Shown piece by piece: positions 11,260 through 42,400 of a stretch of DNA of 64,000 bases. The stretch is from the NCBI GenBank assembly GCA_964016885.1, contig OZ024743.1:158286001-158350000 (forward strand), read 5' to 3'. A model generated the notes under the pieces. The model saw only the letters and a program-made list of their open reading frames with translations. It had not been told where the DNA came from and made no database searches. The stretch comes from Eledone cirrhosa. Its lineage: Eukaryota. Position 1 is the first letter of the stretch. Each line of letters starts with the position of its first letter. A program made the position numbers and the translations under genes.

Positions 11260-11444
11260 GTCTGTAAATCTAATTCCTGTTTTCTACTGTCTGCATTCTT
11301 ATGGTTTTGAAATTTTTTGCAGAGGGTTGGGGATGGAGCAGTTCTCGCTGCAGAAACTGTCTGGGGTTGGTCAGAGGAATATGGTTTATGTTTAGCTTGA
11401 ACATATGTATGTAAGTCAATATCTACAAAAATGAATATATATAT

Positions 11445-12105
11445 ATAATAATAAAGTATATATCCCTACACGCAAAACGCATCCAGGGACACATGTATTG
11501 TCCAACCATATGCCAGAACATATACAATCAAGGTTTAGCAAATAAGAAAAAGTTTCAAAATAAATTTTAAAAAATTCACTGTACTCACTATGGTTACCTT
11601 TACCGAATCGGTTTCGAGTCTCAAAAATAAATGGACAGTCCTTGCGGCCTTCCATTGAAAAGATAAACTCTCGTCAGAAGGTTCTTTTCACTCGGAGAAT
11701 ATAAAATTCCCGAGTTCAAATTACGAACTGGCGCTATTCAAAATTGTTCCCAAGATGAGAATGAATGATGTGGAAGCAATTCTGTCCAGTGTCGTGTGTA
11801 AAGATAGAAGCAGAGGCAGGGAGGTCAGTCTACTACCACTATAAATAGCAGCAGTCAAAATGACAAAATTTTTTCTCAACCAAGAGGAGAACAATAATAA
11901 TAAAGTATATATCCCTACACGCAAAACGCGCCCAGGGACACATGTATTGTCCAACCATATGCCAATGTCATTCAATGGCAGGTTAATAAATTAACGAGCC
12001 AGAATATATATAATCAAGGTTTAGCAAATAAGAAAAAGTTTCAAAATAAATTTCAAAAAATTCACTTTACTCACTATGGTTACCTTTCTTATTTGCTAAA
12101 CCTTG

Positions 12106-12115
<10 letters not shown>
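11445..12115 (-). mobile_element. HHR-bearing non-coding retroelement (retrozyme/Penelope pLTR-like): 486-nt unit + partial second unit + short inverted end
   Basis: Direct repeats 11445-11601 and 11894-12087; intact HHR at 11596-11682; 12085-12115 is the reverse complement of 12005-12035; (TA)n flanks. Confidence 0.85.
11596..11682 (-). ncRNA. Intact type-I hammerhead ribozyme
   Basis: Minus strand: acctt-CTGACGA-gagttt...aatgga...tccatt...agactc-GAAA-ccgattcgg-TA-aaggt. All core nucleotides and stems I, II and III are present. Predicted GUA cleavage between 11601 and 11600. Confidence 0.88.
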
Positions 12116-12144
<29 letters not shown>

Positions 12145-12170
12145 ATTACATACCTGCATACCTGATTACA

Positions 12171-12432
12171 TAAATGTAAGAATGGGTTATATCAAATAAT
12201 AATAATATTCAATTCGTTTGCAAGCAAACGGCCTTACTAAGCTATGATGTGCTCTGATGGCTATCACCATCCATTTGTTCAACAGTAGCATCGAGGAACA
12301 ATCTACATGTTTCAGGACTGTATACCTCTATATATGTTGATAGCTATCAGGGCACATCATAGCTTAGTAAGGCCGTTTGCTTGCAAACGAATCAAATATG
12401 ATCATTATTATTCGATATAACCCATACATTTA
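12171..12432. repeat. Inverted repeat (~95 bp arms) with the 3' half of an HHR in the spacer
   Basis: Arms 12171-12266 and 12339-12432. Minus strand of 12300-12328 reads gaggtatacagtcct-GAAA-catg-TA-gatt. Confidence 0.85.
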
Positions 12433-12481
12433 TATGTATATATATATAAATATAGTTATGTAAGATAATATAGTTATGTAT

Positions 12482-12572
12482 GATAATTATTTCATTTACC
12501 AAAGGTTTCACGAAGATAGACGAGCCTGATGCAGACATCTTCGTGAAACCTTTGGTAAATGAAATAATTATC
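12482..12572. repeat. Perfect 36-bp-arm palindrome containing an HHR 3' half
   Basis: gataattatttcatttaccaaaggtttcacgaagat / atcttcgt-GAAA-cctttgg-TA-aatgaaataattatc. Confidence 0.9.
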
Positions 12573-12662
12573 TTATGTTATTTATTACATAACTAAAAAG
12601 CTCTGTAGCCTACATAGAGCACTCTCTTTTCCTGTACCTTTCCTATGGAAACACTTCATATA

Positions 12663-14660: not shown

Positions 14661-15249
14661 ATTTTATTATAATGTTGGTTGATATTTATGTTATTAATCC
14701 CCATCCCCAGAAATATGAAAGGCCAAGGTAAACTTTGCCTTTCATTCTTCTTTGGTTGATAATATACATAGCTGTCAAATACTAAAGTCAAGCTTATCAA
14801 CAATGGCTGTTTCTAAAATGTTGTTCTTGTTAGAGTCATTGGTTTTAATTAACACCAAGAAGACAGTGAATTGGAAGATTCAAATATGTGCCTTTATATT
14901 CCAAATAGAAATTCTGCTAAAGTGAATTTTCTTTTCATTTTTTACATGACGATTATAAAAAATATTAAGTATTAGTCAAGTACTAGTAAAAGTGTAAGTT
15001 CTGGGATTGAGTGAATAACAGAGGGTGTTATTTGTGGTTTCATGCTATGACTTGGCAGATTGGTAGGCTACATGACCAAATATTCCTTGCTGTATTTAGT
15101 GAGATCATTTTATATTTTGTGTTCGAATTCCATTATATTTGGTTGTCTTTCATCCTTGAAGGGTTCAGAAAATAAGTAACAGTCACATATTGCAGTCTAT
15201 TAAATTTAGTACACCTCTACCACTACACACAAACTTTTGAACTACCTGT

Positions 15250-16845: not shown

Positions 16846-17199
16846 CAAGAAGAAGAAGAAGAAGAAGAAGAAGAAGAAGAATAAGAAGAATGAGGAGGGG
16901 GGGGGAGACGGAGAAGGAGGGGGAGGAGGAGGAGAAGAAGAAGAAGAAGAAGAAGAAGAAGAAGAAGAAGAAGAAGAAGAAGGAGGAGGAGGAGGAGGAG
17001 GAGGAGGAGGAGGAAGAAGAAGAAGAAGTTACAACTTACTATATAATCTTCAAATCCTGCCTATGTCAACTTTGTCTTTCATTCTTCTGGGGTTGATAAA
17101 TAAAGTGTTGGGATCGATGTGACTTACCTAAATTGCTGCCCTCATGCAAATGCAAGAAAGAATTATGGTTAGACTAGTAGATAGTAGATGGGTACACTA

Positions 17200-18248
17200 G
17201 TAGATGGGTACACAAGAGATGTAGCGGGATCTCAGGAAGCTTAATTAAGAATGTAGGATTCACATGCAGCAGCTGTGCTGAAACAGCAAGCAAACAGCCA
17301 CAGGAAACAAGTACCACCAATCTCTGGGAGGGCCCTGTAGAAACAGTAGACAGCTTCTGCTACCTAGGTGACCGAATTAGCAACGGAGGTGGGTGCTCAG
17401 AAAGTACAATAACTAGGGTAAGAACGGGATGGAAGAAGTTTAGGGAACTACTACCACTGCTAGCTGCAAAAGGCTTCTCCCTCAGAATGAAGGGCAGACT
17501 GTATGATGCGTGTATCCGAACAGCGATGTTGCATGGTAGTGAGACCTGGGCGCTGAAGGTGGAAGACTTACGTAGATTAGAGAGAAACGAAGCCTGCATG
17601 CTCCGATGGATGTGTAACAGTAATATACGTGAACGACAAAGCATAAAGGAATTGAGAGAGAGACTGAGCATAAGAGGAATCAAATGCTGCGTGCAGGAGA
17701 GGCGGTTACGCTGGTATGGACATGTGATGCGTATGAAGGATGACAGCTGCATAAAAAGGTGCAGAGCACTAGAAGTTGATGGAAACCGCGGAGTGGGGAG
17801 ACCCAAGATGACTTGGGATGAGGTGATAAAAGCCGACCTTACCCAACTACACCTCTCAAAGTCAATGACACACGACCGTGACTTCTGGCGTCACGCAGTA
17901 ATACAGGGTACCCGACCTCCCATGGGTACATGCTGAAGCATATAAACAATATGCCCCCCCCCCCACCACCACCACCGCAAGGTGGTCGTGGAGGCGCCAC
18001 GGCAAAAAAGCACCCAGCCCACACTGTGAAGTGGACGTGTAGGCGCCACGAAAAAGCACCCAGCACTCACTGTAAATGAGGTTGGTGTTAGGAAGGGCAT
18101 CCAGCTGTAGAAATCAAGCCAGATCAGTTCCTGTATGAGCAAGGCATGGTCAGCCGACCAGACACTGCCCACAACAGGACAACCCGTCTAACCCATGCTA
18201 GCGTGGAAGAACGGACGTAAAACGGTGATGATGATGATGATGATGATA
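17200..18248 (+). mobile_element. RTE-clade LINE, 5'-truncated young copy with 3'UTR and (GAT)n tail
   Basis: FCYLGD..., KGRLYDACIRTAMLHGSETW, RRLRWYGHVMRM, GRPKMTW; closely similar to 39495-40530 (minus). Confidence 0.93.
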
Positions 18249-39494: not shown

Positions 39495-42400
39495 ATCATC
39501 ATCATCATCATCATCACTGTTTTACGTCTGTTCTTCCATGCTAGCATGGGTTAGACGAGTTGTCCTGCTGTGGGCAGTGTCTGGTCGGCTGACCATGCCT
39601 TGCTCATACAGGGACTGATTTTGGTTTGATTTCTACAGCCAGATGCCCTTCCTAACACCAACCTTATTTACAGTGAGTGCTGGGTGCTTTTTTCCATGGC
39701 ATCTACACGTCCACTTTACAGTGTGGGCTGGGTGCTTTTTTGCTGTGGCACCTCCACGACCACCTTGCAGTGGGAGGGTGTGGGGCATATTGTCTATATA
39801 CTTCAGCTTGTACCCATGGGAGGTCGGGTACTCTGTATTACTGTGTGACACCAGAGGTCACGTTCGTGTGTCATCGCCTTTGAGAGGTGTAATTGGGTAA
39901 GGTCGGCTTTTATCACCTCATCCCAGGTCTTCTTGGGTCTCCCCACTCCGCGGTTTCCATTGACTTCTAGTGCTCAGCACCTTTTTATGCAGCTGTCATC
40001 CTTCATACGCATCACATGTCCATACCAACGCAACTGCCTCTCCTGCACACAGCATTTGATTCCTCTTATGCTCAGTCTCTCTCTCAATTCATTTATGCTT
40101 TGTCATTCACGTATATTACTATTACACATCCATCGGAGCATGCAGGCTTCGTTTCTTTCTAATCTACATAAGTCTTCCACCTTCAGCGCCCAGGTCTCAC
40201 TACCATGTAACATTGCTGCTTGGATACACGCATCATACAGTCTGCCTTTCATTTTGAGGGAGAAGCCTTTTGCAGCTAGCAGTGGCAGTAGTTCCCTGAA
40301 CTTCTTTCATCCCGTTCTTACCTTAGTTATTGTACTTTCTGAACACCCACCTCCGCTGCTAATTCAGTCACCTAGGTAGCAGAAGCTGTCTACTGTTTCT
40401 ACAGAGATTGGTGGTACTTGTTTCCTGTGGCTGTTTGCTGCTTGCTGTCCCAGCACAGCTGCTGCATGTGAAGCCTACATTCTTAATTAAGCTTCCTGAG
40501 ATCCCGCTACATCTCTTGTGTACCCATTGTTTGCATTTGGGGCAGAGAATGGAGTTCCAACCTACACCTTTCCTACATACTGAGCAAGGCCATTTCCCTG
40601 AGGGGATCTGGGTTCTGTTTTCTCGTCTACCTACAAGGACCTTAGTCTTTGTCATGTTGACTTTGAGACCCTTTCTTTCTAGTCCCTGCTTCCAAGTTTG
40701 GAATTTCTTCTCTAGTTCTCCATAGATTCAGCTATAAGTGTGAGGTCATCAGCATACAGAAGTTCCCATGGGCATCCGGTCTTAAACTCCTCCGTTATTG
40801 CCTGCAGGACTATGATGAACAGGAGAGGGCTAAGAACAGAGCCCTGGTGGACACCAACCTGTATGCTAAATTCCTCACTATACTCATTGCTAATCCTAAC
40901 TTTGCTGACTGCTCCCTTATACATGGCTTGTACAGCTTTCACAAGCCATTCATCTACTCCTAGTTTTCTAAGAGCTCACCAGATTACAGCACGTGGAACT
41001 CTGTCAAAGGCTTTCTCGAGATCGACGAATGCCAGGTAGAGTGGCTTACTTTTAGCTAGGTACTTTTCCTGTAACTGCCTCACAAGGAAGAGGGCATCAG
41101 TGGTGCCTCTTCCTGGTACAAACCCAAATTGCATCTCATCTAGTTTCACTCGGTCCCTAATCAACTGTGCTATAACTCTTTCTGTTACTTTCATGACCTG
41201 GTCCATCAGCTTTATACCTCTATAGTTTCCTCTATCTAGTGCATCACCTTTACCTTTGTAGCAGTTGACAATGATGCTACTGCACCAATCTTTTGGTATG
41301 ACACCTTCTAGTATTACCTGGTTAACAATACGTGTGGTTATAGTGTGACCTACAGACCCAGATGCCTTCAGCATCTCAGCAGCTATACCCGATGGACCGG
41401 TTGCCTTCCCCATCTTCATATCTTTGATTGCCTTACTTACTACGCTGCTGCTGACTTGTACTGCTGGCCTCTCTATAGGGTCTGCTTGGGGTAGGGTCTC
41501 TTCTTCCCATGGATTCTCCTCATTTAGTAATCTATCATAATGGCTCTTCCATGCATCTTTCTTCTCAGCACTTGTGAGGGCAAGCTCACCTTTATCATTC
41601 CGGATACACTTCTCTCCAATGACATCACAATTCTCTCTGACACACTGCCTCGCAATCTTGAACATCTCCTGTTTCTGGTCCTCACGTTGCAAAACATGCT
41701 TGAATTTTCTATCTTCTGCTTCCCTCCTAGCTAAGTATACTTGTCGCCTAGCTTCCCTCTTGGTCTCTATGTAATGTACCCTGCTCCCCCCATTCTTCCA
41801 TTCTTTCCATGCCTGTCTCTTGGCCTTAACTGCCTCATCTACCTTATTGTTCCACCACCAAGTCACTCTCCTCCTGCTTGTGGTCTTACTCCAGCCACAG
41901 ACCTCATCCGTCGCCTCTAGTAAGTTATTTTTTTAGGAAATCCCAGTGCTCTTCTACATTGAATGTCTCTATCTGTTCTTCTTTACTGTCGTAGGCGTTG
42001 AGTAAAATATCTTTAAATCTGTTACTGGCTGAGGGGCCTTTCAGCTTCCAGATCTTTCTTCTCCAGGTTGGCCTCTGTTTCCAGGTTCGTCTAGTTCTGA
42101 CCGTGAGGTCGCTGACAACTAAGCTATGTTGGGAGGTACATTCCTCACTAGGGTAGGCTTTTGTGTTTACGACCGTCCATTTGTCACGTCCTCTGATGAG
42201 GATAAAATCTATCTGACTAGAATGCTCCCCTGATCTATAGGTGATCAGGTGGTTGTCGGGTTTTTTGAAGTTTGTGTTACATATCGACATGTCATTGGCG
42301 TCGCAGAATTCCTGAAGTCTGAATCCTTCTTCATTTCTTGTACCAACCCTGTGGCCTCCATGGACTCTATTGAACAGTGTTTACCTATGTGTCCGTTAAA

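Follow-up and report, generated by a model that had tools for sequence, protein, structure and literature searches.

Non-LTR retrozymes were defined in PMC7229834, where circles are described in coral, mussel and axolotl and where it is proposed that tandem cDNA is made from circular RNA by Penelope-like elements (PLEs); in PMC4209133 more-than-unit retrotranscription of circles is proposed and dimeric cleavage is described. PLE mobilisation of retrozymes is put forward both in PMC7229834 and in a 2026 preprint (Li, Clavereau and Pollet, 10.64898/2026.07.22.740005), which links vertebrate retrozymes to pLTRs, includes three insects and one anthozoan as invertebrates, reports cleavage in one of nine tested dimers, a result that we take as a caution, since a predicted hammerhead may turn out to be inactive or to cleave slowly. 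Concerning the PLEs themselves, PMC8557442 gives an arrangement in which a truncated copy lies in inverted orientation and one of the ends bears a tail, and two internal reverse transcription (RT) start sites were located for the Anolis PLE in PMC11167929. These sources are cited here, and below, for the accessible parts of their text.

The repeat family described in this article shares with the metazoan non-LTR retrozymes (coral, mussel, axolotl) of PMC7229834 and the preprint, in their accessible sections, one type I hammerhead per non-coding unit, a GC content below 50%, a strongly self-paired predicted circle, the range from monomers to multimers and the co-occurrence of autonomous PLEs. 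Its unit of 483-486 nt compares with 150-450 bp in PMC7229834 and lies within the 51-972 bp of 10.64898/2026.07.22.740005; its stem II is unusually long relative to the retrozymes of both, and the two-armed insertion in (TA)n with two fixed ends is an architecture that does not appear in the accessible portions of either text. Unlike the retrozymes in these two sources, no pLTR sequence common with a parent was found, and the family is known here from DNA alone. With the EN+ Neptune-type PLEs, as they appear in the available parts of PMC8557442, PMC11167929 and PMC4209133, the family shares partial tandems, an inverted 5'-truncated arm, a one-end tail, two internal RT start sites 3' of the hammerhead, AT-rich or (TA)n targets and a palindromic stem III, but it carries no RT/endonuclease ORF and its two ends lie about 107 nt apart, against 30-40 bp (68 nt in family A, an autonomous family of the same genome). 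The Chlamys elements (e.g. MRC1; PMC8557442, in part) show a further likeness as non-autonomous PLE derivatives with pLTRs and multicopy head-to-tail insertions; as a rule they have 3' sequence in common with an autonomous family, and canonical hammerheads are missing from most Chlamys elements. The element class is already known and the family is an additional case with unusually good genomic evidence on mechanism; no description of this family was found in the literature, subscription journals, Repbase/Dfam and paper supplements being outside the scope of that search.

The window, i.e. the whole 64,000-nt stretch of Eledone cirrhosa DNA that was analysed, contains one insertion of the family, the features of which are collected in the table.

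Features of the two-armed insertion in the window (unit positions, q, are counted from the predicted cut on the hammerhead strand)
Feature	Position in window	Strand	Remarks
Entire two-armed insertion (486-nt family) within a (TA)n tract	11445..12116	long arm -, short arm +	
Full 486-nt non-coding unit	11601..12086	-	q1=12086 to q486=11601
Partial second pass, q1-193	11445..11600	-	ends at site B (about +190) in (TA)n
Inverted second arm, q52-83	12085..12116	+	ends at site A (about +83) in (TA)n
Type I hammerhead	11596..11682	-	fold, invariant core, covariation
Hammerhead stem I, ACCUU / AAGGU	11682-11678 / 11600-11596	-	
Hammerhead core CUGACGA	11677-11671	-	
Hammerhead stem II with long inner hairpin	11670-11665 / 11621-11616	-	
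Hammerhead GAAA	11615-11612	-	
Hammerhead stem III, near-palindromic ACCG-AUU-CGGU	11612-11602	-	
Predicted cut after GUA	between 11601 and 11600	-	
Site A within the full unit, UUAUAUAU	12004..12012	-	putative reverse-transcription start
Hairpin with compensatory changes (about q144-183), then site B (UUAUUAU)	11894..11943	-	putative second reverse-transcription start
Left (TA)n flank	11435..11447		
Right (TA)n flank	12106..12140		

The first-pass annotation had described here a repeat with a 486-nt spacing, a switch within a TTT, an inverted segment and (TA)n bounds, and all of these were found at the positions given for them: the direct repeats 11512-11601 and 11998-12087 are 96% identical at a spacing of 486, the direct repeats 11445-11515 and 11894-11964 are 97% identical, and the inverted segment 12085-12116 matches over its 32 nt at 100%. 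The second unit, estimated in the same annotation at about 155 nt, measures 156 nt and has a 37-nt deletion between two TGGC motifs. The window copy has 1.3 passes in its long arm and 32 nt in its short arm, with a switch point that is ambiguous by 3 nt because it falls within the shared TTT (12085-12087). The short inverted segment to which, in that annotation, the repeat switches at the equivalent cleavage position forms the second of the two arms of an insertion of Penelope type. As claimed, the unit holds no meaningful ORF: when it is circularised (GC 36.8%), the longest frame from an ATG is 39 aa on the hammerhead strand and 44 aa on the other. Two consecutive complete hammerheads, by which the 2026 preprint recognises an 'active' retrozyme, are present at family loci such as L016 and L191 and absent at the window locus, which has a single complete one and thus cannot itself release a cut-to-cut monomer; the window insertion is a dead-end, truncated copy of the family. 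No empty site was found in three contig sets (one sample) covering the left flank plus the repeat.

Several other structures were observed in the window. A 76-nt inverted repeat (12195-12409, 91%) and a 39-nt hairpin (12479-12575, 97%) adjoin the insertion and resemble MITE-like or other two-armed repeat ends, while two open frames of 318 aa (40979-41932, minus strand) and 251 aa (17181-17933, plus strand) look LINE-fragment-like by eye.

The complete type I hammerhead that had been claimed on the minus strand stands at its place and with its predicted cut, the hammerhead core numbering and the cut-after-GUA rule being applied to the window motif. The unconstrained minimum-energy fold of the 94 nt from 11684 to 11591 is exactly the three-helix hammerhead (-21.6 kcal/mol); in the predicted folds of a longer 136-nt fragment and of the whole unit the hammerhead core is put away. 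The Infernal/Rfam search suggested in the first-pass annotation was negative, with no hammerhead match at the gathering threshold over the whole window or at E up to 10 over 11400-12200, the stem II insert being long. A pattern written for the family hammerhead matched 2,098 times in the 3.0-Gb genome against 0 for the reversed control, so the motif is not a product of chance; within arrays the hammerheads follow each other at 481-486 nt.

Conservation was assessed on 26 aligned hammerheads picked so that all the subfamilies were covered. Little or no variation was seen in the core, two-sided changes occur in 8 of the 25 pairs (stem II accounting for 4), 13 of the 26 copies have lost the distal pair of stem I, and the covariation score was reached by 0 of 500 shuffles, with the caveat that related sequences can reach such scores too. 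We count this as evidence that the hammerhead is probably maintained by selection on RNA structure. Stem III varies in length and is self-complementary in every subfamily seen (ACCG-AUU-CGGU, ACCGUACGGU, ACCGAUCGGU, ACCGCGGU); its duplex is predicted at -14.3 kcal/mol against -2.0 for the hairpin, predicted energies that fit dimeric cleavage of the kind described in PMC4209133 (accessible text). The circle of the unit is predicted at -127 kcal/mol with 64% of its bases paired (z -4.8 against 40 shuffles), and the linear unit gives z -3.5. In 16 regions following the cut, 51 pairs are predicted and 10 carry two-sided changes, the hairpin that precedes site B being among the places affected.

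On the genome scale the unit gave 2,404 first-look candidates, the best 40 of which were scored, and the end motif q55-83 has 792 exact matches. The repeat period is 483-486 nt, the copies range from monomers to multimers with arrays of up to about nine units, and the insertions are mostly dispersed, of 1-4 units, often two-armed and in (TA)n; no LTR-type structure was seen in the mapped family loci. The subfamilies are 72-100% alike, a young 483-nt subfamily being 78% identical to the window type and a sister subfamily, also ORF-less, 72-82% identical. Our verdict is that these repeats form a new family of animal non-LTR retrozymes with a predicted hammerhead, and that they are not solo pLTRs; the initial reading of the locus as a retrozyme-type, reverse-transcribed, ORF-less hammerhead repeat unattached to a Penelope ORF is thus supported.

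Relatives at 72-82% identity were considered as a possible parent and rejected, as they are another ORF-less subfamily. In the older sister subfamily (L111-L116) stem III is ACCGCGGU, the distal pair of stem I is G-C, and the two ends are unchanged. A very young 483-nt subfamily (L191-L192 and L211-L230, e.g. G000:C1:82116245-82120685) occurs as near-identical multi-unit two-armed arrays, and at L117-L120 one retrozyme insertion is repeated together with its flanks, apparently by local segmental duplications.

The ends of the insertions proved to be highly regular on the 3' side. Family 3' ends lie in one of two places, at q about 80-83 (site A) or at q about 188-193 (site B), each joined to (TA)n, which also flanks the mapped insertions. 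Both sites are AU-rich and single-stranded in the predicted circle, with site A 3' of a long hairpin. Of 59 two-armed insertions, 54 combine an A end with a B end (27/29 including the window copy, 12/15, and 15/15 new loci), two of the remainder being A/A and three having one end elsewhere; these loci are non-random draws, since they were chosen by best match, by a motif (that of an end or of the hammerhead) or, in 8 cases, because they formed close pairs. The inverted 5'-truncated second arm, the two fixed ends, the tail at one end only and the (TA)n target found here match PLE-type integration.

The 5' side gave a different picture from the one expected in the first-pass annotation, where 5' ends of family copies were to cluster at AAGGTAACC, the predicted cut. 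With an anchor at q11-26, 298 of 341 copies continue through the cut and 43 do not (the letters of the anchor filter hide some further copies beyond the 341), and the junction is free of scars in the read-through copies, among the 100 of 298 matches listed. On inspection by eye, 6 of the 43 are copies of the sister type, 10 have internal indels and 27 are breaks; 8 of the 27 breaks are within 3 nt of the cut and 10 are at a TA microhomology at q10-11. Counted by arms, 7 of 130 5' ends fall within 3 nt of the cut where 1.9 would be expected if they were uniform (or 7 of the 22 within 25 nt, where 3.0 are expected), and 5 of these 7 are 1-3 nt upstream of the cut, at the foot of stem III. Clustering at the cut as a rule was accordingly rejected, with about 95% of 5' ends elsewhere; the mild excess near the cut may reflect pausing or a minority of cut templates.

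These counts also bear on the idea that the template was the self-cleaved linear monomer and that the RT, on arriving at the 5' end, jumped back to the 3' end of this one molecule, giving more-than-unit copies. Such a jump explains the uniformity of passes (see below) as well as a circle does, and it would agree with the long arm of the window copy, which starts within 3 nt of the predicted cut, and with the modest excess of near-cut ends among the 130 arms and the 27 breaks read by eye. It is opposed by the great majority of 5' ends lying elsewhere, by near ends that are mostly located upstream, past the junction, and by junctions without scars, both in the listed read-throughs and at nine consecutive cut junctions in L191, and we hold it to be quite unlikely. 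The earlier proposal of a copy of a self-cleaved RNA therefore stands in one part, reverse transcription, with a circular template as the likeliest; the other part, a linear RNA whose 5' end marks the cut, did not stand.

The state of the template was judged from the comparison of passes within single insertions. Non-majority letters are common to passes of the same arm in 97 cases against 16 expected and to opposite arms in 57 against 12, while single-locus variants nearly all stand in one pass (136 cases, with 7 in more than one). In L191, 8 full units plus partials show 2 differences across the whole array, and variant 131G has 3 occurrences in the genome, one in each full unit of L192. Variant 205T has 58 matches in about 24 dispersed insertions; the 20 of these that were fetched, together with L191 and L192, make up a very young set of 22 insertions and 35,640 aligned nt. 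At least 8 haplotypes were recognized among these 22 dispersed insertions, each uniform across passes and inverted arms, and at five segregating sites no insertion has both letters. Single-insertion variants of this set are found in one pass in 31 cases, in some passes in 2 and in all passes in 5 (one of the 5 being the ancestral letter). Since all passes and both arms share the allele, it is likely that one monomer was copied repeatedly, probably as a circle.

The segregating sites include A>G changes of a particular kind. At site 436, G is present in 40 and A in 36 passes of the young set, none of the 19 multi-pass insertions is mixed and the arms agree in 8 of 8; 436G occurs on three haplotype backgrounds, and 436 gives all four combinations with 157 and with 262, as do sites 15 and 21 with each other. 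Because all four combinations are seen, the A>G changes at 436, 15 and 21 are recurrent. Sites 15, 21 and 436 lie in UAG, AAG and AAG contexts, in or beside predicted helices, and these contexts fit the preferences of ADAR; on the strength of three sites and of these preferences, the recurrent changes look like marks of RNA editing. Units of a linear multimer edited independently would mix alleles within an insertion. An excess of A>G as a general mark of older copies was also considered and rejected, none having been found in those copies.

The alternative of an uncut linear multimer as template, with the element and its Penelope-type insertion unchanged, has to be weighed at this point. The RNA would be read from homogeneous tandem source arrays, the units of which stay alike through duplication or conversion in the DNA or through homology jumps between redundant RNA ends, and the template could be made without the hammerhead. 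Long near-identical arrays such as L191 do exist, the Anolis PLE in vitro used uncleaved RNA with no need of hammerhead cleavage (PMC11167929, accessible part), and agreement within insertions is also to be expected from several source arrays that were already homogeneous. Site 15 is mixed in four older insertions (L007, L027, L042, L058), with A in the terminal pass and G upstream, and some variants of L016 and L192 are common to only some passes, a partial sharing from which it follows that duplication or conversion of the DNA at a later time, or errors in the assembly, play a part as well. Linear copying, however, can only shorten arrays, and the uniformity of so many young haplotypes across passes and arms, the 0 of 19 insertions mixed for the recurrent A>G states and the genome-wide confinement of 131G to the three full units of L192 speak against an uncut multimer, which we regard as unlikely. 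Of these points, it is the recurrence and the private variants present in all passes that go beyond what homogeneous source arrays would give.

A further question is whether an autonomous parent carries the unit. According to the first-pass annotation the element would have been only a solo pLTR if the unit were always attached to a Penelope ORF; PLE ORF fragments were met in 7 of 130 family loci, all kept apart from the unit by (TA)n together with unrelated sequence, or by a pLTR of their own family. A parent was also sought by tblastn on the 130 family loci, where none appeared, and by blastn of the unit against 50 GIY-YIG loci, where there was no hit; against five autonomous pLTRs nothing rose above shuffles beyond the hammerhead (z <=1.6). 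Continuations at site B (q165-182) gave 469 matches, and among the 100 listed no foreign sequence is shared, the unit or (TA)n following in its place. The unit could still be the pLTR of an unsampled autonomous Penelope-like family with truncated copies: the end geometry and the style of hammerhead are the same as in family A, and the PLE families examined are a part of the whole, the best 150 of 10,597 GIY-YIG candidates having been scored and 49 loci examined, so that a rare parent may exist. The unit, however, closes on itself in the listed continuations, its arms contain up to nine units and no ORF, in three subfamilies that are 72-100% alike, and the blastn comparison with the GIY-YIG loci was empty, and on balance we find a pLTR origin of this kind very improbable.

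Several autonomous families with RT, GIY-YIG and a CX4CxxC linker are present in the genome. Family A, a candidate member of the Neptune clade (linker CX2-5CxxC), has an N-terminal RT, the CX4CxxC linker (also in Nematis, according to the accessible text of PMC8557442) and, at the C terminus, GIY-YIG. Its hammerhead has the same CCUU/AAGG stem I and an ACCGGU stem III, in a minimal U3/A8 form, whereas the core of the retrozyme hammerhead is the canonical C3-G8 one and its stem III has 4 bp. Its motif CCUU..GAAACCGGUA^AAGG is found at 15,086 places in the genome, all of family A type among the 100 listed, so that this short-stem-II pattern yielded no parent for the unit among them. Of 30 family A copies, 10 end at +82 and 17 at +148-151, often in opposite arms, with 2 elsewhere and 1 unaligned, and the copies differ from their majority by a median of 3.3%, compared with 1.9-10.7% (10th-90th percentile) in tail-anchored retrozyme passes. 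By its end geometry alone, family A is the best candidate driver of the retrozyme.

Further details were recorded in family A and in other PLE loci. Family A (L091, G000:C1:145869000-145877000; L131-L160) shows the U3/A8 core as UUGAAAA and has a 68-nt tail, and other hammerhead-like motifs with a palindromic stem III (AGUACU, AUGCGCAU, ACAAUGU) lie in or near PLE loci (L094/L095/L107, L096:33, L100:6986, L105:7462). Moreover, the predicted cut stands within a 5' splice-site-like motif, CG/GTA^AAG (the caret marking the cut), at 11603-11598 on the minus strand of the window and in the pLTRs L091, L105, L108 and L109, and a pyrimidine tract with GTGTAG (11914-11920, minus strand, in the window) follows about 90 nt downstream in family A or 170 nt in the window unit; motif and tract are possibly a retained PLE intron that overlaps the ribozyme.

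Considering the conserved structure, the copy number, the end geometry, the read-through and the uniform alleles observed in the genome, we think it probable that the family is a non-LTR retrozyme mobilised by a Penelope-like, probably Neptune-type, RT-endonuclease that copies a predicted circular monomer of 483-486 nt. Transcription of a genomic copy with two hammerheads would give an RNA that is cut at both, probably in dimeric form by way of the palindromic stem III, and the monomer would then be ligated, with the hammerhead folded away in the predicted circle. A (TA)n tract would be cut by the enzyme, the identity of which we infer from the footprint left at the insertions, and the DNA ends would prime at the AU-rich single-stranded sites at about +83 and +190. 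Copying would cross the cut junction, which is scar-free in the DNA, and would run for less than one to about nine units, a range seen in the insertions together with scattered stops and arms joined head to head; both arms and all passes would derive from one state of the template, editing marks included. The more specific proposal, that the insertions are DNA records of single A-to-I-edited circular RNAs, on which a pair of PLE RTs primes at two sites and rolls round, and that no sequence-related autonomous parent is involved, is tentative and in our estimate has somewhat less than an even chance.

It should be emphasized that for the return of animal retrozymes to DNA both PLE enzymes and circular templates are already proposed in the accessible text of PMC7229834, PMC4209133 and the 2026 preprint. 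In the present family the footprint of this return can be read in the two fixed start sites, the mirrored arms, the read-through without scars and the alleles that are uniform within each insertion, and some members are very young. Since the family names a substrate, the start sites and a candidate driver, rolling-circle target-primed reverse transcription becomes testable in vitro. If editing marks are fixed in this way, RNA editing would feed straight into genome sequence; the marks would become heritable, and the parasite would evolve as RNA, with no autonomous parent related to it in sequence.
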